Shown here in pieces: positions 4,416 to 17,648 of a stretch of DNA of 24,000 nucleotides (the first letter of the stretch is position 1; each line of letters begins with the position of its first letter). The DNA lies in contig JBNJGD010000009.1 of NCBI GenBank assembly GCA_051747425.1, forward strand, positions 27,778 through 51,777. Reading direction: 5' to 3'. The DNA comes from Pseudomonadota bacterium. Its GTDB lineage: Bacteria > Pseudomonadota > Gammaproteobacteria > HTCC5015. Under the pieces are notes generated by a model. That model did not search any database. It saw only the letters and a list, made by a program, of their open reading frames with translations, and had not been told where the DNA came from. Made by a program: the position numbers and the translations under genes.

Positions 4416-4802
4416 TTACTGGTTGGACGGATGGTTTTCCGCCAGTTCCTGATACTCGCGACACTCTTCCGTCTGGAGTTGCTGCCCATCACCCTGGGTC
4501 ATCTGGGCGCAGCTCAGGCTGTTCAGACTGCGCAGACACTCGGCGCCGGCATCGGCAATATCCCGATACTCGGCCTGCTTGGCCTCGGTAAACTTCTCCT
4601 CCATGGCCGAGCACATGCCCTCCATGCTTTTCATTACCATATCGCGCATGGCCTCGGGGATTTCATCCGTATTCTGGCCCATTTGCTCCATGGTGCACTC
4701 TTTCACCTTGGTGCAATACTTGTTCCACTCGCTCTGAAAAGCGCTGGCCTGGGCCAGGTGGGGCAACATCAGTGCCGCTGCAATGATCATCAGTTTCTTC
4801 AT
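4416..4802 (-). CDS. Small secreted protein of unknown function, six Cys, Met/Glu-rich
   Basis: Signal peptide MKKLMIIAAALMLPHLAQASA. The mature ~107 aa contain 6 Cys and a Met cluster (MRDMVMKSMEGMCSAMEE). AAGGA lies 7 nt before the ATG. A terminator follows the gene. Confidence 0.7.
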   Translation of the reverse strand: MKKLMIIAAALMLPHLAQASAFQSEWNKYCTKVKECTMEQMGQNTDEIPEAMRDMVMKSMEGMCSAMEEKFTEAKQAEYRDIADAGAECLRSLNSLSCAQMTQGDGQQLQTEECREYQELAENHPSNQ

Positions 4803-4873: not shown

Positions 4874-5188
4874 TTATTTGTCGTCGTCCAGGTGCTTGAC
4901 ACTGTCATAGCCGCCGCGATTGATGACATTGATGTAACCCATTTTCTCCAGCGACTCTTTGGCCTTGCCGGCGCGGCGTCCGCTCGCGCAGTAGAGATTG
5001 ATTTGAGCCGTGCGGTCGGCTGTGACCTCTTCGATTTCCTCATCAATTTCATCGTGGGGGATATTAATGGCCTGATCCAGGTGACCTTCGCTGTACTCCT
5101 CGGCGGAGCGCACATCAATCCAGAGCGGCTCGGCCAGCGCCATTGTCGTAAACAGGGAAAGCGTCAAAAACAGGGCGACTCTTTTCAT
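4874..5188 (-). CDS. Periplasmic single-domain rhodanese (PspE-like thiosulfate sulfurtransferase)
   Basis: 104 aa with signal peptide MKRVALFLTLSLFTTMALA. Rhodanese core WIDVRSAEEYSEGHL and active-site loop YCASGRRAG. ATG at 5188 is preceded by GGAG. The track's 5206 start is a TTG. Confidence 0.85.
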   Translation of the reverse strand: MKRVALFLTLSLFTTMALAEPLWIDVRSAEEYSEGHLDQAINIPHDEIDEEIEEVTADRTAQINLYCASGRRAGKAKESLEKMGYINVINRGGYDSVKHLDDDK

Positions 5189-5347
5189 TTCAAACTCCGC
5201 TGCCAATCTTTAAAAGACAGACAGTGTATGACATTTTCCCGCTCCATTGAATTCGCAGTGCCGGCCCGCCGATTTCCTGGAATGTGTAAGAAAACTCTTT
5301 TCCGGGAGACTAATCGGGTGTCAGCCACTCACAAAGGAACTTACAGC

Positions 5348-5956
5348 ATGATATTGATAGACCGCGTCTCCCAACTCTACTCGTCCGCTCTCCAACAAGC
5401 ACAGCGAGCCGACTTTCTGGCCCCTGTCGCGCTGCGACTGTTTCTCGCCCCCATTTTCATTCTCGCCGGCTGGAACAAGCTGACCGGGCTCGAGGGCACC
5501 GCCTACTACTTTGGCGAAATGCTGGGCATGCCGGCCCCCATGTTCATGGCGGTGATGGCCGGATCGACCGAATTGATTGGCGGTATCAGTCTGCTGATCG
5601 GCCTTGGCATGCGCCTGATGACGCTGCCCCTGATGATGACGATGCTGGTGGCTGCGGTGACAGCTCACTGGGAAAACGGCTGGCATGTACTGCCCGAATC
5701 GACGCTGACCATGCCCTGGGAGTGGCGACCGGACCTGATCGAACAGGCCAATGAGAAAAAGGAAATGGCCAAAAGCATCTTGCGCGAGCACGGCAATTAC
5801 AGCTGGCTCACTGAAGCCGGGGCGATCACCGTATTGAAAAACGGCGTGGAATTTGCCGCTACCTACTTCGCCATGCTTCTGGCACTGTTCTTCATGGGCC
5901 CCGGTCGCTATATCAGCCTGGATTACTGGCTGAAGCGCAGCCTCGACAAGGACTGA
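5348..5956 (+). CDS. DoxX-family membrane protein with a long extramembrane insert
   Basis: ATG at 5348 is preceded by AAGGAA. The sequence LAPVALRLFLAPIFILAGWNKL ... STELIGGISLLIGLGMR is typical DoxX. A ~60-aa polar insert (HWENGWHVLPESTLTMPWEWRPDLIEQANEKKEMAKSILREHGNYSW) precedes the last TM. The upstream part of the 354-aa ORF is antisense to the rhodanese gene and is not coding. Confidence 0.8.
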   Translation: MILIDRVSQLYSSALQQAQRADFLAPVALRLFLAPIFILAGWNKLTGLEGTAYYFGEMLGMPAPMFMAVMAGSTELIGGISLLIGLGMRLMTLPLMMTMLVAAVTAHWENGWHVLPESTLTMPWEWRPDLIEQANEKKEMAKSILREHGNYSWLTEAGAITVLKNGVEFAATYFAMLLALFFMGPGRYISLDYWLKRSLDKD

Positions 5957-6011: not shown

Positions 6012-6563
6012 CTAGCTGGAAGGTTCCCAGGCAAAGGGTTGGAAGGGCTCGTCCACCGGCGTATCGGCAATGTGGTTGATGTAGTTACTCATCACCTTCT
6101 GCGACAGCGCCAACACCACTTCCAGAGCCTGTCGCTTTTCATAGCCCGCCTCGAAAAAGGCTTTCAATTCGTCCTCCCCGTGCCCACGGTTTCTCACCAT
6201 GGCCAGGGTAAACCGGCGCAGGGCCTCGAGTTTTTCGTCTTTCAGGGGGCTCTCTTCGCGCAGGGCGTCATCGATGTCGGTGTCCACACCCATGGAGCGG
6301 GCAATACCACTGTGAGCCGGAACGCAGTAGTGACACGCGTGCTCGACATTGATGGTCTGCCAGACCACCGTCTTCTCCTCGTCACTGAGACTGGACTCCA
6401 GCACCAGCCCGTGCAATCGCTGGTAGGCCTCCAGCGTGCCCGGCGCTTCCGCCATGACCGCGTGGAGATTGGGAATCATGCCAAAATCCTTCAGCGATTG
6501 TTCCAGTAGCGGCTTCGATTTTTCCGGTGCCGATTCCACATCGTGCAGTTGAAATGCAGTCAT
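6012..6563 (-). CDS. Carboxymuconolactone decarboxylase (AhpD-like) family protein with CxxC motif
   Basis: 183 aa from ATG 6563, preceded by a strong AAAGGAGG. Contains the AhpD-type motif EHACHYCVPAH and the typical CMD fold sequence (PNLHAVMAEAP..., EKRQALEVVLALSQ). Confidence 0.85.
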   Translation of the reverse strand: MTAFQLHDVESAPEKSKPLLEQSLKDFGMIPNLHAVMAEAPGTLEAYQRLHGLVLESSLSDEEKTVVWQTINVEHACHYCVPAHSGIARSMGVDTDIDDALREESPLKDEKLEALRRFTLAMVRNRGHGEDELKAFFEAGYEKRQALEVVLALSQKVMSNYINHIADTPVDEPFQPFAWEPSS

Positions 6564-6576
6564 GCATCCTCCTTTA

Positions 6577-6593
6577 TTTGAGTGATCGTTCAA
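6577..6593. promoter_or_regulatory. Candidate TetR operator, copy 1 (TTTGAGTGATCGTTCAA, imperfect palindrome around GATC)
   Basis: 17-mer repeated at 6610-6626 with 15/17 identity. The internal dyad is TTGA..GATC..TCAA. It lies in the 107-bp divergent region between the CMD gene and the TetR gene. Confidence 0.5.
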
Positions 6594-6609: not shown

Positions 6610-6626
6610 TTTGAGCGATCATTCAA
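6610..6626. promoter_or_regulatory. Candidate TetR operator, copy 2 (TTTGAGCGATCATTCAA)
   Basis: Second copy of the 17-mer, 33 bp (three helical turns) from copy 1. It overlaps a possible -35 (TTGAGC) for the TetR operon. Confidence 0.5.
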
Positions 6627-6670
6627 ATTATGCTGAAATGGGGTCATTGAAACATTGCACGGAACCCAAC

Positions 6671-7273
6671 ATGCCCAGAACTGCCCAGTACAATCGCGAT
6701 CAAGCCCTGTCCGCCGCCGTCAGCCTCTTCTGGCATAAGGGCTACCACGCCACTTCGCTCAAGGCGGTGGAGCACGCCCTGAACATGCGCCCGGGCAGCC
6801 TCTACAACGCCTTTGGCAACAAGGAATCGCTGTTTCTCGAGGCCCTGGAGCACTACACCCGCAATATGGCGGAAGACCTGGAGCGCCATATTGAACAAAA
6901 GGGAAAGGTGCTCGACGGTATCCACAGCTATCTGGCCTGGTTGTTACTGGACGAGGGCCGCGAACAGGCCGCCTCCCCGGCCTGCATGCTGGTCAAGACC
7001 CTGCTCGAATCCACAGATAACACCCCGGTACTGCGGGAAAAGTCAGTGGCCCTGCTGGGCGAGATGGAGCGGCGTCTCACTGACGCCCTGGAGCGCGCCG
7101 CAGAGGCCGGCGAACTGAAACCCTCCGTGGATTGCCAGCGCCTGGCCCGCCTTCTGCAAACCCAGATCATGGGCATACGGGCCTTTGCCCACACCGGTGC
7201 CGACCAGGCGGCGCTGAGGGCCCTGCTCGATGACATCGAGTCCCTGCTCTCCCCCTACCAACCCGCCCACTGA
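6671..7273 (+). CDS. TetR/AcrR-family transcriptional regulator
   Basis: 200 aa from ATG 6671. The N-terminal HTH RDQALSAAVSLFWHKGYHATSLKAVEHALNMRPGSLYNAFGNKESLF is canonical TetR. Confidence 0.88.
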   Translation: MPRTAQYNRDQALSAAVSLFWHKGYHATSLKAVEHALNMRPGSLYNAFGNKESLFLEALEHYTRNMAEDLERHIEQKGKVLDGIHSYLAWLLLDEGREQAASPACMLVKTLLESTDNTPVLREKSVALLGEMERRLTDALERAAEAGELKPSVDCQRLARLLQTQIMGIRAFAHTGADQAALRALLDDIESLLSPYQPAH

Positions 7274-7287
7274 ACAAGGAGAAGACA

Positions 7288-7686
7288 ATGACGCAACAAA
7301 AAAGACTGGAATGGTCGCTACTGACCCTGAGAATCGGTGTGTTTATCGTGATGCTGATGTGGACGCTGGACAAGTTCGTCAACCCGGATCACGCCGCCGC
7401 CGTTTTTGACAAGTTTTACGGGCTGAGCGGGTGGGGGCCCGAAATTCTATACACCCTGGCCGGACTGGAACTGGTACTGCTGGCCGCCTTTCTGGCCGGC
7501 TGGCAAAAGCGCATCACCTACGGGCTGGTACTGGCATTTCACGGCGTGTCCACACTGTCCTCGTTTCCCCAGTATCTGGACGCGTTCAACAACCTGCTGT
7601 TTTTTGCCGCCTGGCCCATGCTCGCCGCTTGCATTGCGCTCTACCTGCTGCGCGACAGCGACAAACTGATGATCATCGGCCGATAA
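7288..7686 (+). CDS. Small four-TM membrane protein, DoxX-like, co-transcribed with the TetR gene
   Basis: 132 aa. AAGGAGAAG lies 5 nt upstream, and the gene starts 14 nt after the TetR stop. It has four hydrophobic segments. The DoxX-like assignment rests only on general resemblance. Confidence 0.65.
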   Translation: MTQQKRLEWSLLTLRIGVFIVMLMWTLDKFVNPDHAAAVFDKFYGLSGWGPEILYTLAGLELVLLAAFLAGWQKRITYGLVLAFHGVSTLSSFPQYLDAFNNLLFFAAWPMLAACIALYLLRDSDKLMIIGR

Positions 7687-7689
7687 CTG

Positions 7690-7905
7690 CTACCGGCCCT
7701 CTTCCCTGTTCTGATCCGATGGGCTGTCCCCTTCGGGTCGGGCATAGGCCCGGGAGATGTGTCGCAGGCTTTTCACCTGTCGGGAGAACTGATTACAGGC
7801 TGAACACATCAGCAAATGCATGCGCAGTTGTCCTCGCTTGGCCAAAGTCAGCTTTTCATCCTGTGCCCGGGACATGAGTTGTGTGGCTTGGTGACAATTC
7901 AGCAT
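7690..7905 (-). CDS. Short soluble zinc-binding (zf-HC2 / ZAS) anti-sigma factor
   Basis: 71 aa. H-x3-C-x2-C motif at H30/C34/C37 (RMHLLMCSAC), plus upstream C4/H5. No hydrophobic segment. GAGGAG lies 6 nt before the ATG, which is 9 nt after the sigma-factor stop. Confidence 0.8.
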   Translation of the reverse strand: MLNCHQATQLMSRAQDEKLTLAKRGQLRMHLLMCSACNQFSRQVKSLRHISRAYARPEGDSPSDQNREEGR

Positions 7906-7914
7906 AAAGGCTCC

Positions 7915-8511
7915 TCAGGAAAACCAGTGATTTTCCAGACATTCGCGCAGACGAAGGCGCGCACGATAGAGGGTGACATAAAGGTTGCTCTTGCCAATGT
8001 TCAACTCCGTGCACATTTCTTCCGTACTCAGACCGACAAACTCTCTCATCATAAAGAGCCGCCCCTGCTCTGCCGGCAAATGTTGTAAGCAAGCCTCGAA
8101 AACGGCCATGAATTGATCATCTGAAGTGATGTCCTCTGGAGACCCCCAGTGTTTGGGCCGCTCTCCCTTGTGCCAGAACCCTTTGGCATCAAACAACTGC
8201 TCTTCAAGGCCGGAATCGCTTTCCGTATTGTCGAAGTGAACTTCCTTGCGCCTCTCAATCTGCCTGAAGTGGTCCGCGATCTTGTGCTTCAGAATACCAA
8301 TCACCCAGGTCGAATAGGCCGATTGGCGGGAGAACGAGTGACTGCTTTTCAAGGCACCCAACAACGCTTCCTGAACCATATCTTCTGCCAGCGTCGCATT
8401 GGAGAGTTGCTGCCGGGCGAACCGAAGCATCTTGCTCTGAAGCTCCTCCAAATAGGCCGAGTCGTTCAGCCAGTCGGAACCAGTTTGAGCGAGTGGTTCT
8501 GTGCCGTTCAT
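7915..8511 (-). CDS. ECF (sigma-70 family, group 4) RNA polymerase sigma factor
   Basis: 198 aa from ATG 8511, preceded by GAGGG. Region 2 reads AEDMVQEALLGALKSSHSFSRQSAYSTWVIGILKHKIADHFR. Region 4 reads LPAEQGRLFMMREFVGLSTEEMCTELNIGKSNLYVTLYRARLRLRECL. The upstream part of the 255-aa ORF is Arg/Ala-rich and overlaps the ArsM gene 3' end. Confidence 0.88.
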   Translation of the reverse strand: MNGTEPLAQTGSDWLNDSAYLEELQSKMLRFARQQLSNATLAEDMVQEALLGALKSSHSFSRQSAYSTWVIGILKHKIADHFRQIERRKEVHFDNTESDSGLEEQLFDAKGFWHKGERPKHWGSPEDITSDDQFMAVFEACLQHLPAEQGRLFMMREFVGLSTEEMCTELNIGKSNLYVTLYRARLRLRECLENHWFS

Positions 8512-8578
8512 TCGGAGTGCCCTCAAACACGCTTGTCGTGCGCACACTCTATCATGGGAAGGCGACGCCGCCTGCTGC

Positions 8579-9631
8579 CTAACAGCAAGCGCCATCACGA
8601 CTTTCACTGCCACTCGCGGCGGAGCTGAACGGCACCGACTCGCCACAGCCCTCAAACAGGCCGTAGTGCCGGGTGAAGTCACCTATAAACTCGAAGTGCC
8701 CGGCAAAGCGACTCTCCTCAAGCATGCGGAAAGTATTGCCGCACACCGGGAACACCTTGCCGGTTTCAATGGCGTGATGGGCATCCAGATCGAATCGATG
8801 GGCGTGGCCCGGCACGCTGCCACGGTAGATCACGGCCTGGCCGTGGTCCTCGCAGGCGTCCTCCAGCTCATTGATGTTGAACAGTCGGTAAGTGGCCGAG
8901 TAAAAACGGATATTGCCGATGCGCTCGGCCAGCGCCGGGTCGGTCACGGCGAGCGGGCGGTCCTCGACCAGGCGCGGATCGTTAAAGCCCGCTGTACGGG
9001 ACAAGCGGATAAAATCTTTCCAGTAGAGGGCGCCCCCCAGGCACTCGCCGTAGAGCACCGGGTCGTTGGCCACCGACGCCGGGATGCGGCGGTCGGCATA
9101 AACATCGGAAAAGTAGAACTCGCCGCCGGGCTTGAGCAATTTTTTAACGCCGGCCAGCACAGCGGGCTTGTCGGGGGACAGATTGATGACGCAGTTGGAC
9201 ACCACCACATCAAAGGCGCCCTCCTCCAGGTCCAGCTCGTCGAGCTTTTCGATGTAACCCTTGAGGAAGCGCACATTGTCGTAACCAAACTGATCGGCGT
9301 GATAGATGCGGTGATCCTCGGCCACGGCCAGTTGCTCGTCGGTCATATCCACGCCGACCACTTCGCCCTTTGGTCCCACCAACTGAGCCAGCGCGTAGAC
9401 ATCCCGGCCGCTGCCGCAGCCCAGATCCAGCACTCTGCAGCCCTCCAGCAACTCGGGGCAGACCAGACCACAGCCGTAGTAGCGGGAGAGTACCTCGCCG
9501 TGGATGTTGGCCAGCAGCGGCTTGAGCCACTCGGGCACCTCGCTGGCGTCGCAGCAGGCATCGGTTTTCAGGTCATCGGTACTCTGCAGCGTTTTGCCGT
9601 AGTAGTCCTGAACAATATCGTGTGTCGACAT
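8579..9631 (-). CDS. arsM: As(III) S-adenosylmethionine methyltransferase ArsM
   Basis: 350 aa from ATG 9631, preceded by GAGGAG. It resembles characterised ArsM along its full length: DLKTDACC, YYGCGLVCP, SAM motif VLDLGCGSGRDV, SNCVINLS, FSDVYADRR, YGECLGGALY. All four As-binding Cys positions appear to be present. The ArsM C-terminal domain is present and the protein ends in GACC. Confidence 0.88.
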   Translation of the reverse strand: MSTHDIVQDYYGKTLQSTDDLKTDACCDASEVPEWLKPLLANIHGEVLSRYYGCGLVCPELLEGCRVLDLGCGSGRDVYALAQLVGPKGEVVGVDMTDEQLAVAEDHRIYHADQFGYDNVRFLKGYIEKLDELDLEEGAFDVVVSNCVINLSPDKPAVLAGVKKLLKPGGEFYFSDVYADRRIPASVANDPVLYGECLGGALYWKDFIRLSRTAGFNDPRLVEDRPLAVTDPALAERIGNIRFYSATYRLFNINELEDACEDHGQAVIYRGSVPGHAHRFDLDAHHAIETGKVFPVCGNTFRMLEESRFAGHFEFIGDFTRHYGLFEGCGESVPFSSAASGSESRDGACC

Positions 9632-9656
9632 TACATCTCCTCGGTCACTATCGGTC

Positions 9657-11807
9657 TTATCCGCGGCGCCACTGGTGGTAGCGCGCCAGCCAACGCAGCA
9701 CACCCTCCGGCTTGTGGGCCTGTTTCCACTGGCCGGCGGCAAACTTGTTGGCCTCGGCCAGTGTCGGGTAGGTGTGGATGGTCGAGAGAATCTTGTTCAG
9801 GCCCAGCCCCCAGCGCATGGCAAACACAAACTCGGCCAGTAGCTCGCCGGCGTGGAGGCCCACGATGGTGACACCCAGGATCCGGTCCTTGCCCGGCGGC
9901 GTCAGCACTTTGACGAAGCCCTTGATCTCGCTCTCGGCGATGGCCCGGTCGAGGTCGTCCAGGTCGTAGCGTGTGACTTCGAACGCCACGCCCTGCTCCG
10001 TCGCCTCCTGCTCGTTCAGTCCCACCCGGGCCACCTCGGGGTCGACAAAGGTGGTCCAGGGAATCACGCGGTAGTCCGCCTTGAACTTTTTGAACTGGCC
10101 AAACAAACCGTTCACCGCCGCGTACCAGGCCTGGTGGGCGGCGGTGTGGGTAAATTGATAGGGGCCGGCCACATCGCCCACGGCAAAGATATTGGGGTAC
10201 AGCGTTTCCAGATACTCGTTGGTGACCACGGTGCGATCGGTTTCGATGCCCAGGGTCTCCAGACCGTAACCGGTCAGACGCGGAGCGCGACCCACGGCAC
10301 AGAGCAACTCGTCAAAGGCAATCGCCTCCTCGCGCCCGTCAACCTCCACGATCAGGCGCTTCTCGTCGCCCTCGATCTCGCAGCGCAGGGCCTTGTGGCC
10401 GGTGAGGACGCGCACGCCCTCCTCGCTCAACTCGTGTTTAACCAGCTCGGACACCTCGGCGTCCTCTCGCGCCATCAAGCGCTCACCCATTTCCACCTGA
10501 GTCACTTCGCTGCCGAGTCGGGCAAGGGCCTGGGACAACTCGCAGCCGATGGGGCCGCCGCCGAGCACCAGCAAGCGACGCGGCGGCGACTCCAGGGAGG
10601 CGAAGCGATCCCACAGGGTATCGGAAGTCACATAGCCGACTTCTTCCAGTCCCGGCAACGGCGGCACAAAGGGGCTGGCGCCGGCGGCGATGACGATACT
10701 GCGGGTAGTCAGGCGCTGCGTTTCACCGTTGTCCTTGGCAATCTCAACCGTCCAGGGATCCACAATGGTGGCATAGCCCTGTTGCACATCGACGCCCAGA
10801 CTCTCGTAGCGCTCCACGCTGTCGTGGGGCTCGATATCGCGGATGATCGACTGGATTCGGCCCATGATGGCTTTGAAGGACACAGCGGGCTCGGCGGCCT
10901 CCAGACCGTAGCGCTCGGCGTGGCGCATTTGGTGGGCCAACTTGGCGCTCTTGATCAAGGCCTTGCTGGGGACACAGCCGTAGTTGAGGCAGTCGCCGCC
11001 CATTTTGTGGGCCTCCACCAGGGTGACCTCGGCCTTTACCGCCGCGGCAATATAGGCGCTGACCAGACCGCCGGCACCGGCGCCGATCACCACCATATTG
11101 CGATCAAAGCGTTTGGGCTTTTGCCAACCGCGATAGACCTTGCGGCGGCGGAAGAAAGCGACGATGGCCCTGGCAATCCAGGGAAAGAAGCCCAACAAAA
11201 CAAAGGAGAGGATCAGTTCGGGGGACAAAATACCCGAAGCGCTCTCCAGCTGTCCCAGCTGTGTGCCGGCATTCACATAGACCACCGTACCGGCCAGCAT
11301 GCCCACCTGGCTCACCGCGTAAAAGGTCACGGCGCGCATGGGCGTCAGCCCCATCACCAGGTTAATGACGAAAAACGGAAAGGCGGGAATCAGCCGCAGG
11401 GTAAAGAGATAAAAGGCGCCGTCGCGCTTGATGCCCCGGTTAATGGCTTTGAGGCGGTCGCCAAAGCGTTGCTGCACCGTGTCGCCAAAGACATAGCGGG
11501 CCGAGAGAAAGGCCAGTGTGGCGCCGATGGAGGAGGCAAAGGACACCAGCACCGTGCCCCACAACAGGCCAAACAGGGCACCGGCGGCCAGCGTCATGAT
11601 GGCCGCACCGGGCAGTGAAGCCGCCGTCACCAAGACATAGGCGATAAAGAAACCGCCTATAACCAGCCAGGGGGATTCCTGGCGCCAGAGCGCGACTTCG
11701 TCCAGGCCCGATTTAAGCCCGGCAAAGGTCAAATGCTGGTGGCCGCCCAAGGCAAAGAACACCACAGCAACGGTGGCGATCAGGGCAATAATGATCAGTT
11801 TTTTCAC
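9657..11807 (-). CDS. Fusion protein: N-terminal TVP38/TMEM64 (DedA-superfamily) membrane domain + C-terminal class-I FAD/NAD(P)H pyridine-nucleotide disulfide oxidoreductase
   Basis: The N-terminal ~230 aa are polytopic, with RLIPAFPFFVINLVMGLT (a TVP38/DedA signature). The rest reads VVIGAGAGGLV, redox-active GGDCLNYGCVPSK, a second Rossmann motif LVLGGGPIGCE, and the dimerisation-domain sequence HTYPTLAE. The preferred start is GTG 11807 (AGGA 7 nt upstream, 31 nt after the ArsS stop). The track's TTG at 11915 would overlap ArsS by 77 nt. Confidence 0.85.
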   Translation of the reverse strand: MKKLIIIALIATVAVVFFALGGHQHLTFAGLKSGLDEVALWRQESPWLVIGGFFIAYVLVTAASLPGAAIMTLAAGALFGLLWGTVLVSFASSIGATLAFLSARYVFGDTVQQRFGDRLKAINRGIKRDGAFYLFTLRLIPAFPFFVINLVMGLTPMRAVTFYAVSQVGMLAGTVVYVNAGTQLGQLESASGILSPELILSFVLLGFFPWIARAIVAFFRRRKVYRGWQKPKRFDRNMVVIGAGAGGLVSAYIAAAVKAEVTLVEAHKMGGDCLNYGCVPSKALIKSAKLAHQMRHAERYGLEAAEPAVSFKAIMGRIQSIIRDIEPHDSVERYESLGVDVQQGYATIVDPWTVEIAKDNGETQRLTTRSIVIAAGASPFVPPLPGLEEVGYVTSDTLWDRFASLESPPRRLLVLGGGPIGCELSQALARLGSEVTQVEMGERLMAREDAEVSELVKHELSEEGVRVLTGHKALRCEIEGDEKRLIVEVDGREEAIAFDELLCAVGRAPRLTGYGLETLGIETDRTVVTNEYLETLYPNIFAVGDVAGPYQFTHTAAHQAWYAAVNGLFGQFKKFKADYRVIPWTTFVDPEVARVGLNEQEATEQGVAFEVTRYDLDDLDRAIAESEIKGFVKVLTPPGKDRILGVTIVGLHAGELLAEFVFAMRWGLGLNKILSTIHTYPTLAEANKFAAGQWKQAHKPEGVLRWLARYHQWRRG

Positions 11808-11838
11808 AAGTTCATCCTGTCTTGGCAATGGTTTTGGT

Positions 11839-12813
11839 TCAGTGGCTTTCCAGGGCACCGCCGCAACTGGAGCCACTGCCGGCAGTGCAACCGTAGCAGT
11901 GATCGGCGACGACAATGGGCTGGCCCACGGCGTCGGAAGTCAGCAAGTCACGCAAGTGGGGGCGACCTTCGGAAAAACCCTGCGAAGGCATGGGCAGCTC
12001 CAGCATCTGGTTGAAATCGCAATCGTAGAGATAGCCCTGCCAGTCGACGCTGACCTGGCTGCGACACATCACATGGGGCAGGTTCGCCGCCGAGTGGTTG
12101 CTCTTGAGCAAATCCATGTAGGCGTCAAATTGATGAGTGGCCCGCAACATCGAACCAAAGCGCTTGATGGGCATATTGGTGATGGTGAAGAGCTGGTTGA
12201 ACTCGATGCCGAAGTGCTCGCGCAACTCGCGCTTGTAATCGGCCTCCAGAGCGCCCTGCTCCGGCGGCAGCGAAGCGCCTTGGGGGTTGTACACCAGATT
12301 CAGCACCAGATCGCTGCCGGGTTGGCCGTAACCCAGGGCATTGAGGCGCTTGAGAGCCTCGATACTGCCCTCGAAGACGCCGTCGCCGCGCTGGGCATCG
12401 ACATTGTCCAGGGAGTAGCACGGCAGCGAGGCCACCACTTCCACTTTGTGGTCGGCGAGAAACTGCGCCGTGTCCTCCTGACCCGGCTCGAGCAGTATGG
12501 TCAGGTTGCAGCGATCAATCACATGCACACCGCGCTCGGTGGCGGCCCGCACCAGGCCCTTGAAGCCCTCGTGAATTTCCGGCGCACCGCCGGTGAGATC
12601 CAGTGTTTTAAAGGGACGCTTCTCCAGCACCTCGACAATCAGGTCGAGATTGTCGTCGGTCATCATTTCCGTGCGGCTGGGACTGGAGCCCACATGGCAA
12701 TGACTGCAACTGAGATTGCAGCGGTAGCCAATATTGACTTGCAAGGTGTCCAGTGACTCCCGGCGCAAGGACGGGAAATCGGTATTTTCCAAAAGGGGCA
12801 GTACGGATTTCAT
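11839..12813 (-). CDS. arsS: Radical SAM / Cys-rich C-terminal domain protein of the ArsS (arsenosugar-pathway) family
   Basis: 324 aa. Radical-SAM cluster motif YRCNLSCSHC. The family-typical C-terminal Cys-rich tail reads DHCYGCTAGSGSSCGGAL. Size and layout match the rSAM/Cys-rich (ArsS) family. This is the Cys version, with no in-frame TGA. Confidence 0.82.
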   Translation of the reverse strand: MKSVLPLLENTDFPSLRRESLDTLQVNIGYRCNLSCSHCHVGSSPSRTEMMTDDNLDLIVEVLEKRPFKTLDLTGGAPEIHEGFKGLVRAATERGVHVIDRCNLTILLEPGQEDTAQFLADHKVEVVASLPCYSLDNVDAQRGDGVFEGSIEALKRLNALGYGQPGSDLVLNLVYNPQGASLPPEQGALEADYKRELREHFGIEFNQLFTITNMPIKRFGSMLRATHQFDAYMDLLKSNHSAANLPHVMCRSQVSVDWQGYLYDCDFNQMLELPMPSQGFSEGRPHLRDLLTSDAVGQPIVVADHCYGCTAGSGSSCGGALESH

Positions 12814-12895
12814 AATGATGAATGTATCTTCTCTTCTTTGTTGACGATGTTGTCTATTGAGTCGCTGTGCTGCGAAAACTCTTACAGTATTTTTC

Positions 12896-13741
12896 TCACG
12901 GGCGCCTGAATCGCAGGGTCATTCGGTCGCTTTCACCGATTTCACGGTACTTCTCAATGCAACCGCTGCGCTGTGAATCCTCCAGTGACCGGCAACCGCG
13001 CAGTGAAGGTGGCAGTGACCAGACTCCGGCATCATGGTCCCGGCTGTCTTTGGGGTTGTGGTTGAGTGGGCTCGATGCTTCCAGTTCAAAACCGGCGGAT
13101 TCCACCTTTTCGACCAGCCAGGCTTCGCGCACATAACCCGTGCGCTCTTCCCCTTCCGGAGTGGCGTCGGGCTGTGCCCGGTGTTGCACAATGGCCAGAA
13201 CACCGCCCGGTTTTAGCGCTTCCATGCTGGCAGCGAGCACCTGATCGACAATTCCGCCGCGGATAAAATTGTGGAAATGTCGGGATAAAATCACCATGTC
13301 CAGCGATTCGGGTTCGCCAAATGTGGTGTGCCGGGGAGGCTGGAACGGCACCACTTTCACATCGCCATAGACCGCCGGGCTGGATTCAATCATGTCGACA
13401 AAATCCCGCGCCATGGCGGCGCGCCAGTCCGGCCTGGCGTCCAGGGGAAAGTTGGCGACCACCAACTGGCCTTTGTCCCGCAAAGCCGGCCCCAAGATCT
13501 CGGAGTACCAGCCGCCACCGGGCCAGACCTCCAAAACAGTCATGTCCGGTTCCAGACCCCAGAATTCAAGGGTCTCAACCGGCCTTCTATGGACATCACG
13601 AGCGCGATTCTCGGCACTTCGATGATCGCCATTTACCGCCTTGAGGATGTGATCCTGCTCGGCCCGCTCCGGCAGCGACTGACAGGCCGTCAGCCCCAGC
13701 ACCAGCACCGAAAAAAACAGTTTAAAGGGAATCGCTTGCAT
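12896..13741 (-). CDS. Predicted lipoprotein class-I SAM-dependent methyltransferase (COG4798-like)
   Basis: 281 aa from ATG 13741. Signal peptide with lipobox MQAIPFKLFFSVLVLGLTAC. Methyltransferase core VLEVWPGGGWYSEIL ... LKPGGVLAIVQH. The upstream part of the 323-aa ORF has no coding features. Confidence 0.8.
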   Translation of the reverse strand: MQAIPFKLFFSVLVLGLTACQSLPERAEQDHILKAVNGDHRSAENRARDVHRRPVETLEFWGLEPDMTVLEVWPGGGWYSEILGPALRDKGQLVVANFPLDARPDWRAAMARDFVDMIESSPAVYGDVKVVPFQPPRHTTFGEPESLDMVILSRHFHNFIRGGIVDQVLAASMEALKPGGVLAIVQHRAQPDATPEGEERTGYVREAWLVEKVESAGFELEASSPLNHNPKDSRDHDAGVWSLPPSLRGCRSLEDSQRSGCIEKYREIGESDRMTLRFRRP

Positions 13742-13810
13742 CCTTGTTCTCCAAAATTCGAGTGATATCAACCGGAAACGCCCCCACTCAGTCGGCCCAA
13801 CCAGACATTT

Positions 13811-13827
13811 CTTACACATTGTGCAAG
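13811..13827. promoter_or_regulatory. Imperfect 17-bp palindrome CTTACACATTGTGCAAG, candidate operator upstream of the methyltransferase/ArsS operon
   Basis: 14 of 17 positions are self-complementary. It lies 70 bp upstream of ATG 13741, in the 317-bp region shared divergently with deaD. Confidence 0.3.
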
Positions 13828-13978
13828 AGAAGCCCTTTTTTTCGACTGAAGCAGTGTATTCAATCAATCGATGAAAAGCTTATGACGCACGCCACCTCCA
13901 CAAGCTGAACCTTACCGCGTTTGTGAAAAAAATTTGTGATATTAGCCAATATATCCTCTCTATTTCCGTCGCATGGCG

Positions 13979-13984
13979 TATAAT
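13979..13984 (+). promoter_or_regulatory. Candidate -10 hexamer (perfect TATAAT) for deaD
   Basis: A perfect TATAAT lies 75 nt upstream of the deaD ATG, in the most AT-rich stretch of the window. No convincing -35 was seen, so confidence is low. Confidence 0.3.
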
Positions 13985-14058
13985 GCGCACTCTTGTTTGG
14001 CAACGCTGGTTTTGGAAGTCTTTTGGCTGGCCGGTAACTGCCCCCTTAGGTTCTCTCC

Positions 14059-15825
14059 ATGACATCCCCCGATACCCTCCGTTTTTCCGAGCTGGCGCTC
14101 GCCGCGCCCGTATTGCAAACCCTTGAAAAGATAGGCTACGAAGTGCCCTCGCCGATTCAGGCCCAGAGCATTCCGCCGATTCTCGCCGGCCGCGACCTTA
14201 TGGGCGTGGCCCAGACCGGTACCGGCAAGACCGCCGCCTTTGCCCTGCCCCTGTTGTCGAACATCGACTGCGACCTGAAACAACCCCAGGTGCTGGTTCT
14301 GGCTCCCACGCGGGAGCTGGCCATCCAGGTGGCCGAGGCTTTCAAAACCTACGCCGGCCAACTCAAGGGCTTCCATGTGCTGCCCATCTACGGCGGCGCC
14401 GACATGGGCGGCCAGCTCAAGGCCCTGCGACGCGGCCCCCAGGTCGTGGTCGGCACTCCCGGGCGGGTCATGGACCACCTGCGGCGCAAAACCCTGGTCC
14501 TCGACCAGCTCAAGGCCGTGGTGCTCGATGAAGCCGACGAAATGCTGCGCATGGGCTTTATCGAGGATGTGAACTGGATCCTCGAGCACACCCCCCAACA
14601 GCGCCAGATCGCCCTCTTCTCGGCGACCATGCCGGCGCCGATCAAGAAACTCTCCAAGCAGTACTTGCGCGATCCGGTGTCGGTCAAAATTGAGGCCACC
14701 CAGAGTTCCATGGCCCAGATCGAACAGAGCTACTGGCTGGTCAAGGGCGCCAACAAACTGGAGGCCCTGACCCGCATCCTCGAGGTAGAGCCCTTTGATG
14801 GCATCATCATGTTCGCCCGGACGAAGAACATGACCGTGGAACTGGCCGACAAGCTGGACGCCCGAGGCTACCGCACGGCGGCGATCAACGGCGATATCAC
14901 GCAAAAACTGCGCGAGCGCACCATCGACCAGCTCAAGAAAAACAAGATCGACATCCTGGTAGCCACCGATGTGGCCGCCCGGGGTATCGATGTGGCCCGC
15001 ATCAGCCATGTGATCAACTTTGACATTCCCTACGACCCCGAGGCCTATGTCCACCGCATTGGCCGCACAGGTCGTGCAGGTCGCAGCGGCAAGGCGATTC
15101 TCTTTGTCGCTCCCCGCGAACGCCACCTGTTGAGAGCCATTGAAAAGGCTACCGGCCAGAGCGTCGCGCCCATGGACCTGCCCAGCCGCGAGGTCGTCCA
15201 GCGCCAGCGCGAGGATCGCTTTATCCAGCGCACTCTGGAAGTCGGTCAGTCACAGGATCTGGACTTCTACCACCGTCTGGTGCAAAGAGCCCTGTCCGAC
15301 GGCGAGGTGGACATTGAAACCCTGGCCGCCAGCCTGGCCTACATGGCTCAGGAAACACAGCCGCTGGTGCCGGAAACCCCGCAGTTTGAGCCCAGTCAGC
15401 GCAGCTCTGGCGCCTCCGAGCGCAGTGACAAGCGCCCGGGCAAATCACAGCGTCAAAAACAGGACGATGTGCCCATGGAGAGCTTTCGCATCGCCGTGGG
15501 CCGTAAACACGATGTCAAACCCGGCGACATCGTCGGCGCCATCGCCAACGAAGCCGGCGTCGAGAGCCGCTACATTGGCCGCATCGAACTGGGCGACTTG
15601 TGGAGCACCATCGGCCTGCCCGAGGGCATGCCCGGGGAAGTATTCGCCAAACTCAAAACCTTGCGCGTCCGTGGCCAGCCGCTGAACATTGAGCGCAGTG
15701 CCGGCCCGCAGTCGGGCAAGCGACCGCCCTCGCCTCCGGCCAAAAAAGGCAAGAAGCGCCCGGCACTGGAGCGCAAGAAACTCGAACAGAAAAAGAAAAA
15801 GGCCAAGGGCGGCAAAAACGCCTAG
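14059..15825 (+). CDS. deaD: DEAD-box ATP-dependent RNA helicase DeaD/CsdA
   Basis: 588 aa. Q-motif region FSELALAAPVLQTL..GYEVPSPIQ, motif I AQTGTGKT, motif II DEAD, SAT, HRIGRTGRAG. The C-terminal DbpA-type RNA-binding domain ends in a Lys-rich tail. Confidence 0.93.
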   Translation: MTSPDTLRFSELALAAPVLQTLEKIGYEVPSPIQAQSIPPILAGRDLMGVAQTGTGKTAAFALPLLSNIDCDLKQPQVLVLAPTRELAIQVAEAFKTYAGQLKGFHVLPIYGGADMGGQLKALRRGPQVVVGTPGRVMDHLRRKTLVLDQLKAVVLDEADEMLRMGFIEDVNWILEHTPQQRQIALFSATMPAPIKKLSKQYLRDPVSVKIEATQSSMAQIEQSYWLVKGANKLEALTRILEVEPFDGIIMFARTKNMTVELADKLDARGYRTAAINGDITQKLRERTIDQLKKNKIDILVATDVAARGIDVARISHVINFDIPYDPEAYVHRIGRTGRAGRSGKAILFVAPRERHLLRAIEKATGQSVAPMDLPSREVVQRQREDRFIQRTLEVGQSQDLDFYHRLVQRALSDGEVDIETLAASLAYMAQETQPLVPETPQFEPSQRSSGASERSDKRPGKSQRQKQDDVPMESFRIAVGRKHDVKPGDIVGAIANEAGVESRYIGRIELGDLWSTIGLPEGMPGEVFAKLKTLRVRGQPLNIERSAGPQSGKRPPSPPAKKGKKRPALERKKLEQKKKKAKGGKNA

Positions 15826-17648
15826 TCGCCGTCGGGTAGCTCGTCTTCCCGTTTTCCAAAACGGCGTCGCTTGGCCTCGGCCGTCAGTACCCGCTCCAGT
15901 TCCTGGTTGTTTTGATGGGAGCGGGTCATGTATTCCTTCTGATCGTCGATGTAATCGATCAGCTCGTGGAGATGGGCCTCGTCCATCCGACGAAATGTCT
16001 CTGCAGCCAGCGCCGTATGCTGCTCGTTGATGCCCATCAACTGCAGCGCCTGTTCCCCCATGCTCATGGCCGAGTGGAAGGTGTCGCGAATGACCACATC
16101 CACGCCGGCCTTGAGCAGTTTCTGGGCCTCGTAGCGGCCCGTAGCCCGGGCCATTATCGTCAGCCGGGGATGGTGCTTTTTGCTGTACTGGGCAATCGAC
16201 ATGACTTTTTCCGGATCGGCCAGGGCCAGCACCAGCAGTTTGGCTTCACCGATGCCCGCCGACTCGAGCAACTCCGGGCGCGAGGCGTCACCAAAAAACA
16301 CCTTCTGACCAAAGCGCCGCACCATCTCCACTTGCTGAACACTGTGATCCAGAACGGTCCCTTCAAAACCGTTGGTGCGCAGGAAGCGCCCCACCACTTG
16401 CCCGAAACGACCGTAGCCGGCCAGTATCACCGGAGTCTCGCCGTCGTCGATAAAATCCGGTTCTGGCTCGTTGCGCCCGCGCCACAATCGGGGGTACAGC
16501 ACGCGCTCGTAAAACAGCATCATCAGCGGCGTCACCGCCATGGACAGGGCCACTGCGAGTATGAGCGGGTCTATCAGCTCGCGCTCGAGTACCGACACGG
16601 ACGCCGCAAAACTGAACAGTACGAAGGCGAACTCGCCGCCCTGGGCCAGGGTCAGCGTGAACAACCAGCGCTGGTCGCGAGCCAGTCCAAAGAGGCGTGC
16701 CAGTACATAGAGCACCACAAACTTGATGGCGATCAGGCCCGTCAGGAGACCCAGGATCAATGCCGTCGAGTCCGCCAATAACTGAAAATCAATGCTGGCA
16801 CCCACCGAGATAAAGAACAGTCCCAGCAGCAGGCTTTTGAAGGGATCGATCTCGGCTTCCAGTTCGTGACGGTACTCACTGTCGGCGAGGACCACGCCGG
16901 CGAGAAAAGTACCCAGGGCCGCCGACAACCCCACCAGGTTCATCAACAATGTGATCCCGATGATCAGCATCAGTGAGGTAGCGGTAAACAACTCGCGCAT
17001 CCTGGCCATCGCCACCAGTCGGAAGAAGGGGCGCACGAGAAAACGCCCGGCGAGGATAATGCTGCCGATCACCGCGCCCACCAGCAGGGTTTGTTGCCAA
17101 CCGGCCAGCTGGCCGTAGAAGGTATCGCTGCCCGGCTCAACACTGGTCATTGCCAGCAGTGGCAACAGCGCCAACAGCGGTATCACCGCCATGTCCTGGA
17201 ACAGCAATACGGAAAAGGCCGAGCGGCCGGCCTCGGTCTTGATCAGCCCTTTTTCACTGAGCATCTGCAGCACAAGGGCGGTAGAGGAGAGAGCCAGAAT
17301 CAGGCCCACGGCCAGCGATTCCCGCCAGGAAAACCCCAGACTGAACCCGGCGACAAAAAGCAGGGCCGCCGTCACCAGTACCTGGGCGCCCCCCAAACCG
17401 AGAATGGGCGTTCGCAAACGCCACAATTTGGCCGGCTCCATTTCCAGACCGATCAAAAACAACATCATCACTACGCCGAGTTCGGCAAAGTGCATGACAT
17501 CGTGGATATCCTTGCCCACCAGGGCCAGCGCGTAGGGGCCAATCACGGCACCGGCAATCAGGTATCCGAGCACCGAGCCAAAACCCAGCCGGCGGGCAAT
17601 GGGAACGGCGATCACCGCGGCAAAAAGGAATACAAAGGCCTGGAACAT
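15822..17648 (-). CDS. Kef-type (CPA2) glutathione-gated K+ efflux / cation:proton antiporter with C-terminal RCK (TrkA-N) domain
   Basis: The N-terminus FAAVIAVPIARRLGFGSVLGYLIAGAVIGP aligns with KefB/KefC. About 13 TM segments are followed by VILAGYGRFGQVVGRFL, the Rossmann motif of an RCK domain. The first ATG is at 17648; the track's 17666 start is a TTG. No clear SD was seen. Confidence 0.86.
   Translation of the reverse strand: MFQAFVFLFAAVIAVPIARRLGFGSVLGYLIAGAVIGPYALALVGKDIHDVMHFAELGVVMMLFLIGLEMEPAKLWRLRTPILGLGGAQVLVTAALLFVAGFSLGFSWRESLAVGLILALSSTALVLQMLSEKGLIKTEAGRSAFSVLLFQDMAVIPLLALLPLLAMTSVEPGSDTFYGQLAGWQQTLLVGAVIGSIILAGRFLVRPFFRLVAMARMRELFTATSLMLIIGITLLMNLVGLSAALGTFLAGVVLADSEYRHELEAEIDPFKSLLLGLFFISVGASIDFQLLADSTALILGLLTGLIAIKFVVLYVLARLFGLARDQRWLFTLTLAQGGEFAFVLFSFAASVSVLERELIDPLILAVALSMAVTPLMMLFYERVLYPRLWRGRNEPEPDFIDDGETPVILAGYGRFGQVVGRFLRTNGFEGTVLDHSVQQVEMVRRFGQKVFFGDASRPELLESAGIGEAKLLVLALADPEKVMSIAQYSKKHHPRLTIMARATGRYEAQKLLKAGVDVVIRDTFHSAMSMGEQALQLMGINEQHTALAAETFRRMDEAHLHELIDYIDDQKEYMTRSHQNNQELERVLTAEAKRRRFGKREDELPDGD

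Follow-up and report, generated by a model that had tools for sequence, protein, structure and literature searches.

The stretch of DNA analysed here, called the window throughout, is 24 kb long (24,000 nt) and comes from contig JBNJGD010000009.1 of a Pseudomonadota bacterium of the gammaproteobacterial lineage HTCC5015. Between positions 7690 and 13741 it carries a block of six genes, all on the minus strand, in which two predicted enzymes of organoarsenical chemistry—the As(III) methyltransferase ArsM and ArsS, a radical-SAM (S-adenosylmethionine) enzyme—keep company with a membrane-anchored disulfide reductase, an exported protein with a methyltransferase fold (lipoMT), and two regulators, an extracytoplasmic function (ECF) sigma factor and a zinc-binding (ZAS) anti-sigma factor. 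Read in the direction of the genes, and with two promoter-like motifs included, the features of the block are these:

13791–13816, minus strand: promoter-like motif TGTAAGAAATGTCTGGTTGGGCCGAC (TGTAAG-N16-CGAC), an exact match, ending 49 nt upstream of the lipoMT start codon
12896–13741, minus strand: lipoMT, an exported protein with a lipobox and a class-I methyltransferase fold (open reading frame, signal, AlphaFold2 model)
12861–12886, minus strand: promoter-like motif TGTAAGAGTTTTCGCAGCACAGCGAC, an exact match within the 82-nt gap between lipoMT and arsS, ending 47 nt upstream of the arsS start codon
11839–12813, minus strand: ArsS, radical-SAM enzyme (TIGR04167 equivalog, Radical_SAM and DUF3641)
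9657–11807, minus strand: fusion of a DedA/TVP38 domain to a disulfide reductase, GTG start (VTT_dom, Pyr_redox_2, Pyr_redox_dim)
8579–9631, minus strand: ArsM, As(III) S-adenosylmethionine methyltransferase (phmmer matches to 5evj and 4fr0, four aligned cysteines)
7915–8511, minus strand: ECF sigma factor (TIGR02943, Sigma70_r2, Sigma70_r4_2)
7690–7905, minus strand: ZAS anti-sigma factor, 71 aa (NF052368, zf-HC2), starting 9 nt after the sigma gene

The six co-directional reading frames are all intact and are separated, from lipoMT to the anti-sigma gene, by gaps of 82, 31, 25, 67 and 9 nt. Two of the starts chosen are independently backed: lipoMT (281 aa) is identical in sequence and length to a protein annotated by NCBI in a metagenome-assembled genome, ‘class I SAM-dependent methyltransferase [Pseudomonadota bacterium]’, and the fusion starts where it was called in a close relative, the locus L161. 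No terminator-like hairpin lies in the gaps of the block; a scan of 7200–14300 returned five sites, against 7.1 by shuffling, and all five are intragenic or on the plus strand upstream of lipoMT. A sigma-70 promoter scan of the block gave nothing useful, an Rfam scan of the whole window found neither a riboswitch nor any other RNA family, and the repeats in 7600–14100 are merely short, chance-like matches. ArsR, ArsB/Acr3 and ArsC domains are absent from the genes called across the window, and tblastn with E. coli ArsR and ArsC found no match in it; nor did tblastn find there the glycosyltransferases TIGR04283 (GT2) and TIGR04282 (DUF2064). MtnP (S-methyl-5'-thioadenosine phosphorylase), DUF547 and a gene of the fatty-acid-hydroxylase family are missing from the window too.

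A preliminary description of this DNA had given the same coordinates and gaps, terminator-free junctions, and a window devoid of ArsR, ArsB/Acr3 and ArsC; the open reading frame listing and the hairpin scan bear out the layout, and the domain scans and tblastn the absences. The motifs that it quoted from ArsS, ArsM, the anti-sigma factor, the fusion and the lipoprotein signal are all present in the translations, and the identities that it gave to the genes hold by comparison of profiles and structures.

ArsS scores 467 bits against the NCBI equivalog TIGR04167 (cut-off 300). Pfam Radical_SAM matches at 43.5 bits, with the CX3CX2C motif in the form CNLSCSHC (C32, C36 and C39), and DUF3641 (PF12345) at 192 bits over residues 182–320; the protein ends in a cysteine-rich tail, CYGCTAGSGSSCGG, that carries C306, C309 and C317. 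The characterised enzyme of this kind adenosylates dimethylarsenite to 5'-deoxy-5'-dimethylarsinoyl-adenosine, or DDMAA (PMC13598754). By homology, the ArsS of the window is expected to add a 5'-deoxyadenosyl group to dimethylarsenite, and its ratio of nonsynonymous to synonymous substitution (dN/dS) against the L161 homologue is 0.024.

ArsM enzymes methylate As(III). The one in the block aligns over residues 6–346 with the structure of Chlamydomonas ArsM (5evj; phmmer E=6.8e-110) and over residues 3–328 with that of Cyanidioschyzon ArsM (4fr0; E=1e-88), and it is 57–60% similar to As(III) methyltransferases that have been characterised both biochemically and structurally. In the phmmer alignment to 4fr0, C26, C54, C147 and C197 fall on C44, C72, C174 and C224 of CmArsM, so that all four arsenic-binding cysteines are present, as first reported; a further cysteine, at 27, stands beside C26. 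The protein lies under every NCBIfam cut-off for ArsM, at 166 versus 263 for NF008823, 88 versus 400 for NF038099 (AsSugarArsM) and 141 versus 500 for NF040538, and NCBI's annotation pipeline (PGAP) calls its homologue in Acinetobacter portensis (69% identity) merely a ‘methyltransferase domain-containing protein’. Judged by these alignments it is a genuine ArsM, closest to the algal ones, of a distinct subfamily that PGAP does not name as such. The logic that runs from ArsM to ArsS, proposed at the outset as a route to organoarsenicals, holds by homology.

The fusion consists of a DedA/TVP38 (VTT) membrane domain, roughly residues 1–220, and a class-I FAD-dependent pyridine-nucleotide disulfide reductase, residues 237–716. 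The VTT match (PF09335, 75.8 bits) covers residues 69–182; about five hydrophobic segments lie in residues 1–216, a basic linker follows, and by the positive-inside rule the reductase would be cytoplasmic. Its redox-active pair, C273/C278, is contained in CLNYGC (273–278), and an HTYPTLAE motif lies close to the C-terminus. The reductase is about equidistant from the solved structures of mercuric reductase (MerA) and dihydrolipoamide dehydrogenase (Lpd), and the protein scores under the cut-offs for MerA, Lpd and glutathione reductase. That it might be MerA was considered and rejected: cysteines occur solely at 273, 278, 422, 476 and 503, the C-terminus (...HTYPTLAEANKF...WRRG) is free of them and so lacks the vicinal pair, and the score against TIGR02053 (MerA) is 363 bits versus a cut-off of 454. 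PGAP names it ‘bifunctional TVP38/TMEM64 family protein/FAD-dependent oxidoreductase’.

The product of the first gene, lipoMT, has a lipobox, LTAC, with its cysteine at position 20, and no match in Pfam or NCBIfam at E≤0.001. Its AlphaFold2 model (predicted local distance difference test, pLDDT, 92.6) has a class-I methyltransferase fold, and its best solved structural matches, with template-modelling (TM) scores of ~0.5–0.57, are the small-molecule SAM methyltransferases SpnF, AtmM, MitM and TleD. The family numbers over 7,600 proteins. In each of the 13 whose N-termini were read, the sequence opens with a hydrophobic segment resembling a signal peptide, after which several have a lipobox-like cysteine; two C-terminal cysteines are conserved to 90% or more across an alignment of 26 sequences. 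On these signals, the protein is truly exported and ends up in a place where SAM is not expected. It adjoins arsS in L019, L065, L070, L095 and L161, and the sigma pair in L142. Both it and the fusion had been put forward as uncharacterised partners of ArsM and ArsS, and uncharacterised they prove to be.

The sigma factor scores 215 bits against TIGR02943 (cut-off 162) and consists of domains Sigma70_r2 and Sigma70_r4_2 only. The anti-sigma factor scores 66 bits against NF052368 (cut-off 50), matches Pfam zf-HC2, and displays C4 followed by H30-x3-C34-x2-C37. Of 68 homologues that were read, 67 display H-x3-C-x2-C and the other is a fragment of 23 aa; a cysteine near position 4 occurs throughout, most of the homologues are 60–104 aa long, and hydrophobic stretches of transmembrane length are lacking in all of them. 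By this pattern it is a minimal, soluble ZAS anti-sigma factor with a putative Cys3-His site.

Are these six genes together by accident? Two collections of loci speak to this. The first, seeded with ArsS, comprises 80 loci from species-representative genomes, mostly of Beta- and Gammaproteobacteria, at 58–67% identity; their genes were called using conservation between loci, and then clustered. TIGR04283 occurs in 53 of the 80, TIGR04282 in 44, the fusion—or separate TVP38 and reductase genes—in 39, a metallophosphoesterase-like protein in 20, a cluster of ECF sigma factors in about 16 (11 of them at least 35% identical to that of the window), DUF3047 in 15, a TIGR03169 oxidoreductase in 13, DUF547 in 12, ArsM also in 12 (the window included), MtnP in 5, and lipoMT in 3. 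An ArsR-like gene is nearby in two of these loci and ArsC in none, by sequence search. The second collection, seeded with the sigma factor, began as 80 metagenome loci (best sigma identity, 55%), from which 29 were kept that are at least 5 kb long and have a sigma factor at least 35% identical. The anti-sigma gene is immediately downstream in 24 of the 29, one or more partner genes are present in 19, and ArsS, the fusion or TVP38 is present in 14; sigma homologues adjoin one of these last three in many loci. From locus to locus the order of the genes is shuffled and the membership kept, as four examples illustrate:

L095: ArsS>sigma>anti-sigma>GT2>lipoMT>ArsM
L053: TVP38>reductase>sigma>anti-sigma
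L077: reductase>sigma>TVP38>ArsS
L106: sigma>anti-sigma>DUF3047<ArsS>fusion>GT2>DUF2064

Plasmids carry the set as well. On pJNE5-X3_NDM-1 of Acinetobacter portensis, a carboxymuconolactone decarboxylase (CMD) gene, sigma, anti-sigma, CcdA, thioredoxin (Trx), arsS, fusion and DUF547 genes lie together, and with them TIGR04283, TIGR04282, the ArsM homologue at 69% identity, a phosphate transporter and MtnP. On a plasmid of Burkholderia thailandensis, arsS diverges from zf-HC2, sigma, CcdA and Trx genes, and B. glumae plasmids combine arsS, the fusion and a sigma gene. Because the same gene families recur together, reordered, in many unrelated loci, the arrangement is more than chance. The preliminary description had reckoned with the block being coincidental should the partners turn out not to be conserved next to arsS; they are conserved there. 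The block is no fixed six-gene unit: L161 has no sigma pair, and lipoMT, in 3 of the 80 ArsS loci, is a rare partner.

The regulators are joined to the enzymes by a motif, TGTAAG-N16/17-CGAC, first noticed upstream of arsS in 9–11 of the 80 ArsS loci when these regions were compared with one another. The arsS site of the window took part in that discovery; the lipoMT site and all of the sites in other loci are independent of it. Among all of the loci collected (2.05 Mb, both strands) there are 88 exact sites versus 4–7 in shuffles, and the motif is enriched ~40-fold around the sigma family: loci chosen by sigma homology (at least 35% identity) have 58 sites in 486 kb, ArsS-seeded loci 24 sites in 1.33 Mb, and loci with distant sigma factors only, 0 sites in 63.5 kb. 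The window contains exactly two exact sites, both on the minus strand, versus 0.01 expected, and no shuffle reached two. With one mismatch allowed and a spacing of N16 there are four matches versus 0.72 expected, a number reached by none of 100 shuffles. Bacillus subtilis sigma-X promoters, with the consensus TGTAAC-N17-CGAC, resemble the motif in architecture.

Across the collected loci, the gene next downstream of the motif is ArsS 15 times (the A. portensis plasmid included), the fusion or a reductase 13 times, TVP38 five times and DUF547 twice; there is a single case each of ArsM, lipoMT, MtnP, an SSF-like transporter, an AhpD-like gene (in L081) and a TIGR03169 gene. Sigma operons, too, have the motif ahead of their first genes in L082, L086, L123 and Sphingopyxis pSFD01, a pattern consistent with autoregulation. 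Downstream genes that fall outside these classes include two for DUF2282 bufferin precursors and others for MsrB, DUF3179, a DinB-like protein and a cytochrome-c-like protein. One-mismatch copies precede the A. portensis ArsM homologue and Trx–CcdA operon, the DUF2282 operon of a Klebsiella quasipneumoniae plasmid, and doxX of a Moraxella plasmid. The conserved ECF-type motif immediately before lipoMT and arsS lends support to control of the block by the sigma/anti-sigma pair, which had been surmised at the outset. The cytochrome-c-like protein just mentioned (L094, ~8330–9130) has many AAKNPC repeats at both of its ends and could be metal-binding.

Two other candidate elements did not survive. 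The first motif search, with pairs of 5-mers and 4-mers in 29 upstream regions, found nothing above shuffles. TTGTC-N16-19-GATAA, considered as the regulon motif from 72 sigma-upstream regions, was rejected on the grounds that it belongs to the sigma genes of a single sister subgroup and is absent from the window; it stands ~25 nt upstream of the sigma start in ~16 of the loci L108–L148, a subgroup with an 84-aa anti-sigma factor, and nowhere else in them. An apparent −10 element, ‘CTATAGTG’, near the sigma genes of the window's own subgroup was rejected as the coding sequence of a conserved 75-aa upstream gene. This gene encodes a membrane protein, is directly upstream of the sigma gene and overlaps it (L082 9730–9957, L123 4706–4933, L165 6761–6958), and is often preceded by an HD-GYP or FAD-oxidoreductase gene; in Sphingopyxis, PGAP names it ‘nitrate/nitrite transporter NrtS’. 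ATGATAG/CTATCAT closely precedes the sigma gene in the window (8540–8552), in L053 (near 10440) and in L077 (near 8200). In L053 it forms a perfect inverted repeat, CTATCATTTATAATAATGATAG; its role may be that of an operator or of a −10 element for the housekeeping sigma factor.

We consider it moderately probable that the block is an organoarsenical-making operon, driven by two promoters that are read by its own 3'-encoded ECF sigma factor. By homology, ArsM would convert As(III) to dimethylarsenite, and ArsS would convert dimethylarsenite to 5'-deoxy-5'-dimethylarsinoyl-adenosine. The fusion, from its anatomy, would anchor a disulfide reductase dependent on NAD(P)H at the cytoplasmic side of a DedA-type translocator of lipids or solutes, and might either keep thiol-dependent arsenic chemistry in the reduced state or handle a membrane-bound product. 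Something periplasmic, where SAM is not expected, would be acted upon or bound by lipoMT; the adenosine-like product is one candidate. In the unstressed cell, the soluble 71-aa anti-sigma factor, which has a Cys3-His zinc site, would hold the sigma factor. Thiol-reactive stress—trivalent arsenicals, copper, oxidants—would disrupt that site and free the sigma factor to start transcription at TGTAAG-N16-CGAC upstream of lipoMT and arsS, and read-through would then raise the expression of the sigma and anti-sigma genes themselves, a positive feedback. The same sigma factor probably drives a divergent pair of genes at 4.9–6.0 kb as well, for a rhodanese and a DoxX protein, and the sigma/anti-sigma pair belongs to a widespread family, the predicted regulon of which mixes ArsS clusters with genes for thiol and metal stress. 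The features of this divergent pair are:

5285–5310, plus strand, and 5320–5345, minus strand: a divergent pair of motif copies, each with one mismatch, lying in the 159 nt that separate the rhodanese and DoxX genes
4874–5188, minus strand: rhodanese-domain protein with a signal-peptide-like N-terminus (Pfam Rhodanese, 57 bits); the one-mismatch motif is 131 nt upstream
5348–5956, plus strand: DoxX-family membrane protein, 202 aa (Pfam DoxX, 75.9 bits)

The DoxX gene is a probable member of the block's sigma regulon and the rhodanese gene a possible one. DoxX genes recur beside the sigma family, and a partnership of DoxX with a rhodanese is familiar from the DoxX–SseA–SodA complex of Mycobacterium tuberculosis. 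Of the extent first given to the block, then, the genes named hold, and the likely regulon goes further, to this pair at ~4.9–6.0 kb. Downstream of the rhodanese gene (4416–4802, minus strand) is one for a 128-aa protein with a signal-peptide-like N-terminus, eight cysteines and no Pfam match, which may be part of the same stress unit.

Elsewhere, the sigma family is found in varied company. On K. quasipneumoniae plasmids the sigma/ZAS pair lies beside MsrPQ, a CMD gene, DoxX and a DUF2282–DUF692–DUF2063 bufferin cluster, and on a Moraxella plasmid beside DoxX and DUF692. In Sphingopyxis it is directly upstream of the fusion; in Ciceribacter the sigma gene is ~450 nt upstream of the fusion gene on the same record, by match coordinates. 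The pair is not specific to arsenic: the family and its motif also go with bufferin precursors, MsrB, DoxX, AhpD-like, Trx/CcdA and TVP38/reductase genes in loci that have no arsS. Direct attack by arsenite is accordingly no likelier a trigger than thiol or metal stress in general. On the most parsimonious view, this is an ECF/ZAS switch family for stress by thiol-reactive metals, metalloids or oxidants, with ArsS clusters as one of its cargo modules.

The nearest relative of the ArsS–fusion–ArsM module, L161 from a Logan assembly, has the order lipoMT>ArsS>fusion>136-aa membrane protein>ArsM, with GT2 and DUF2064 divergent upstream and DUF547 and a fatty-acid-hydroxylase-family gene downstream. 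Amino-acid identity to the window is 97% for ArsS, 94% for the fusion and 92% for ArsM; the synonymous divergence (dS) of these three is 0.6–0.8 and their dN/dS 0.02–0.09, which indicates strong purifying selection. The lipoMT of L161 (8893–9765) also stands upstream of arsS and is 68% identical, with dS saturated. Set against the 92–97% of the downstream genes, this looks like replacement in place, or else like a divergence far longer than that of its neighbours. Upstream of arsS, L161 keeps TGTAAG and has no CGAC at the right spacing. The window has a clean gap of 25 nt where L161 encodes, between the fusion and ArsM (13005–13415), the 136-aa predicted membrane protein.

Several observations weigh against the block being an operon under its own sigma factor. 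L161 has no sigma pair nearby, and its nucleotide homology to the window, which covers 13632–9661 and 9631–8571 only, stops 8 nt past the arsM stop codon; because of this, the sigma pair may be a recent neighbour. The fraction of G and C at third codon positions (GC3) is ~0.63–0.64 in the sigma, anti-sigma and lipoMT genes versus 0.76–0.78 in those for ArsS, the fusion and ArsM (and 0.75–0.8 in most flanking genes), a contrast that suggests a mosaic origin. The 67-nt gap upstream of the window's sigma gene contains no copy of the motif. About eight motif matches fall within sigma coding sequence (L045 9592, L055 8461 and 9640, L071 9665, L054 8859, L057 7968, L031 4017 and L133 2475); they lie in the part that encodes region 4, at the peptide CKELGIS.TN, a short way before the anti-sigma gene and arsS, and each is either a coding coincidence or an internal promoter. 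The proposed assignment of the motif to this sigma factor is built on co-occurrence and on ECF-like architecture. Finally, the glycosyltransferases, MtnP and DUF547 of other ArsS clusters are missing from the window, which leaves the end product uncertain.

From the first of these points one might conclude that the sigma pair is a mere neighbour, in charge of a general thiol/metal-stress regulon of DoxX, rhodanese and AhpD-like genes, beside which ArsM, the fusion, ArsS and lipoMT were inserted with unrelated promoters of their own. The module does exist without the pair in L161, the homology does end at the arsM stop codon, GC3 does differ between the sigma pair and the enzyme genes, and the sigma family does accompany bufferin, MsrPQ and DoxX genes where there is no arsS. 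We think this account unlikely, nonetheless: both exact motifs of the window are directly upstream of lipoMT and arsS, and it is the rhodanese/DoxX copies that are imperfect. The motif, moreover, stands before arsS in 15 cases across loci, and in L095, L053 and L077 the pair is embedded in ArsS operons.

What the block makes is a separate question. It had been described as an organo-metalloid module for biosynthesis or detoxification; the ArsM/ArsS logic of that proposal stands, and an arsenosugar as its end product is not to be assumed, since TIGR04283, TIGR04282 and MtnP are absent from the window. MtnP genes recur in ArsS clusters, namely L163 (the A. portensis plasmid, 15429–16292), L164, L002, L003, L009, L016 and L033, and in L009 a sigma-type motif lies upstream. 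The enzyme logically suggests itself for the step in which DDMAA would lose its adenine and become the arsenoribose phosphate.

The fusion has been found on 91 plasmid records, and arsS on 54. On Klebsiella (L167, K. pneumoniae p_b78b_NDM5) and Pseudoalteromonas (L169) plasmids it occurs with a DUF547 or FAD-oxidoreductase gene, an ABC transporter and a CDP-alcohol phosphatidyltransferase. This second conserved context, without arsS (L167, L169, and plasmid hits H24 and H27–H29), also has a sterol-desaturase-family gene, and on four alphaproteobacterial plasmids the fusion adjoins a phosphatidyltransferase gene; it suggests a role in unusual phospholipid head-group chemistry. Such company lends some colour to the idea that the cluster is not mainly about arsenic at all, but handles selenium or tellurium, or builds an unusual membrane-lipid head group, the word ‘arsenosugar’ having simply been carried over from cyanobacteria. 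Selenoproteins occur in the ArsS family, TIGR03169 oxidoreductases (a type that occurs fused to SelD) recur nearby, ArsR and ArsC are scarce or absent around ArsS, at 2 and 0 of the 80 loci, and ArsM fails all of the NCBIfam ArsM cut-offs. An ArsM this similar to characterised As(III) methyltransferases, with its four arsenic-binding cysteines in place, and an ArsS that clears an equivalog model built around the characterised enzyme make the idea distinctly unlikely, however, and the MtnP and phosphate transporter of related clusters fit arsenic chemistry and the uptake of arsenate.

That the block is instead a truncated, partly decayed arsenosugar or arsenolipid cluster with no defined product, in which only methylation and detoxification by ArsM still matter, is very unlikely: GT2, DUF2064, MtnP, DUF547 and the fatty-acid-hydroxylase-family gene are indeed absent, where most ArsS loci have several and L161 all but MtnP, and so is the 136-aa membrane gene of the fusion–ArsM interval, but all six reading frames and both promoter motifs are intact, dN/dS is 0.02–0.05 for ArsS and the fusion, and the missing genes could be elsewhere on the 112,758-bp source contig or in the rest of the genome.

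If the block is an organoarsenical operon under its own sigma factor, a bolder version can be put forward, which we rate as unlikely. The 71-aa ZAS protein might itself be the sensor of trivalent arsenicals, with As(III), or the intermediates that the pathway itself produces, methylarsenite (MAs(III)) and dimethylarsenite (DMAs(III)), binding the three cysteines, expelling the zinc and freeing the sigma factor; and the DedA–reductase might be the missing membrane step, a flippase or reductase, for arsenic lipids or their adenosylated precursor. Were this true, it would be the first alternative-sigma switch for a metalloid, and the synthesis of organoarsenicals would be under feed-forward control.

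Between the divergent rhodanese/DoxX pair and the block lie three more genes, identified by Pfam and NCBIfam:

6012–6593, minus strand: AhpD-like/CMD gene
6611–7273, plus strand: TetR gene, divergent from the AhpD-like gene
7288–7686, plus strand: small DoxX/MauE-like gene, convergent with the block and ending 3 nt from the anti-sigma stop codon

AhpD-like homologues occur near an ArsS or sigma gene in L005, L007, L081, L083, L094, L121 and the A. portensis plasmid, in some cases again accompanied by that divergent TetR gene, and NCBIfam has a family, NF041537, defined as an ‘arsenite methyltransferase/AhpD domain selenoprotein’ fusion, which hints at a partnership of ArsM with AhpD. A link of these three genes to the block is only suggested. 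Farther off, at 18219–20737 (minus strand) and 4.5 kb from the block, are genes for CopB and a CopA-type multicopper oxidase, for copper resistance, which fits a metal-stress neighbourhood. The rest of what was noted in the window is a translesion-polymerase gene pair (966–2824, minus strand), UmuD-like (Peptidase_S24) and UmuC-like (IMS family), an EAL-domain protein (2736–4271), and a protein with Jacalin and ricin-B lectin domains (8–919).

The enzyme families, the NCBI labels for ‘arsenosugar biosynthesis’ and the DedA–reductase fusion were already known; the sigma-linked motif and the regulatory association appear to be new. In the searchable literature we found no description of a link between ArsS or ArsM and an ECF/ZAS pair, of the motif, or of the fusion in connection with either, although the ECF Hub may hold a description of the group and a predicted promoter. 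Nor did we find in it a description of ArsS neighbourhoods, of the targets of this sigma family or of ECF control of arsenic genes, or anything on the control of arsM or arsS outside the ArsR paradigm. To our knowledge, ArsM and ArsS catalyse the only characterised steps in the synthesis of arsenosugars and arsenolipids. The locus and its relatives offer a concrete candidate circuit, in which the ECF sigma factor, the minimal Cys3-His anti-sigma factor and the promoter motif are all defined, and the related loci offer candidate parts for the later steps: the DedA–reductase fusion, DUF547, MtnP, TIGR04282 and TIGR04283, and the CDP-alcohol phosphatidyltransferase. Acinetobacter and Burkholderia strains that can be cultured carry the gene set on plasmids, which makes genetics feasible. 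In the predicted regulon, organoarsenical synthesis stands alongside copper-binding bufferins, DoxX, rhodanese and the repair of methionine sulfoxide, which suggests that thiol-reactive metals and metalloids are met by a single common response.

How does the block compare with systems that are better understood? With canonical ars operons (ArsR, ArsB/Acr3, ArsC and sometimes ArsM) it has in common the theme of arsenic and, possibly, ArsM. It differs from them in that the window contains no ArsR, pump or ArsC, and in that control is apparently exerted by an alternative sigma factor rather than by a metalloid-binding repressor. It has the same two enzymes as the ArsM/ArsS pathway of Synechocystis sp. 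PCC 6803, with an ArsS that passes TIGR04167; of the families that NCBI labels ‘arsenosugar biosynthesis’ (TIGR04167, TIGR04282 and TIGR04283), the window lacks the TIGR04283 and TIGR04282 glycosyltransferases. The ArsM here is of a different subfamily, below the AsSugarArsM cut-off, and there are extra partners: the DedA–reductase fusion, the exported methyltransferase-fold protein and the ECF sigma/anti-sigma pair. For none of the three did we find an account in connection with arsenic genes in the searchable literature.

The fusion is identical in domain architecture to the DedA (COG0398)–pyridine-nucleotide disulfide oxidoreductases that make up the commonest fusion in that DedA subfamily, and the function of which was left unexplained (Todor et al. 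2023, PMC10127716). That paper ties these fusions only to aerobic metabolism, whereas here they are tied to ArsS clusters, to an ECF sigma/ZAS pair and to a promoter motif; with the ArsS/sigma linkage, this commonest of DedA domain fusions acquires a first functional context.

In Caulobacter, bufferins are products of copper stress under a different ECF pair, SigF/NrsF (PMC11626156). That pair controls bufferin operons and a response to heavy metals and oxidative stress, and its regulon overlaps the one predicted here, in which DUF2282, with DUF692, DUF2063, DoxX and methionine sulfoxide reductase genes, lies beside the sigma family or behind the motif. NrsF is a multi-pass membrane protein, whereas the block encodes a small ZAS anti-sigma factor that is soluble; the sigma factor is of another family, and ArsS and the DedA–reductase are additional predicted targets.

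SigR–RsrA of Streptomyces coelicolor likewise comprises an ECF sigma factor and a soluble ZAS anti-sigma factor encoded next to it. The zinc ligands of RsrA are C11, H37, C41 and C44. Their spacing, a cysteine, 25 residues, then H-x3-C-x2-C, is that of C4, H30, C34 and C37 here, and the predicted regulon of the block's sigma factor, too, includes thiol-redox genes. The pair described here differs in that its sigma factor belongs to the TIGR02943 family, of Proteobacteria, and its anti-sigma factor is of a much shorter kind, 60–100 aa. Its promoter motif differs as well, TGTAAG-N16/17-CGAC, and to the thiol-redox genes its predicted regulon adds those for organoarsenical synthesis, the DedA–reductase and the bufferins.

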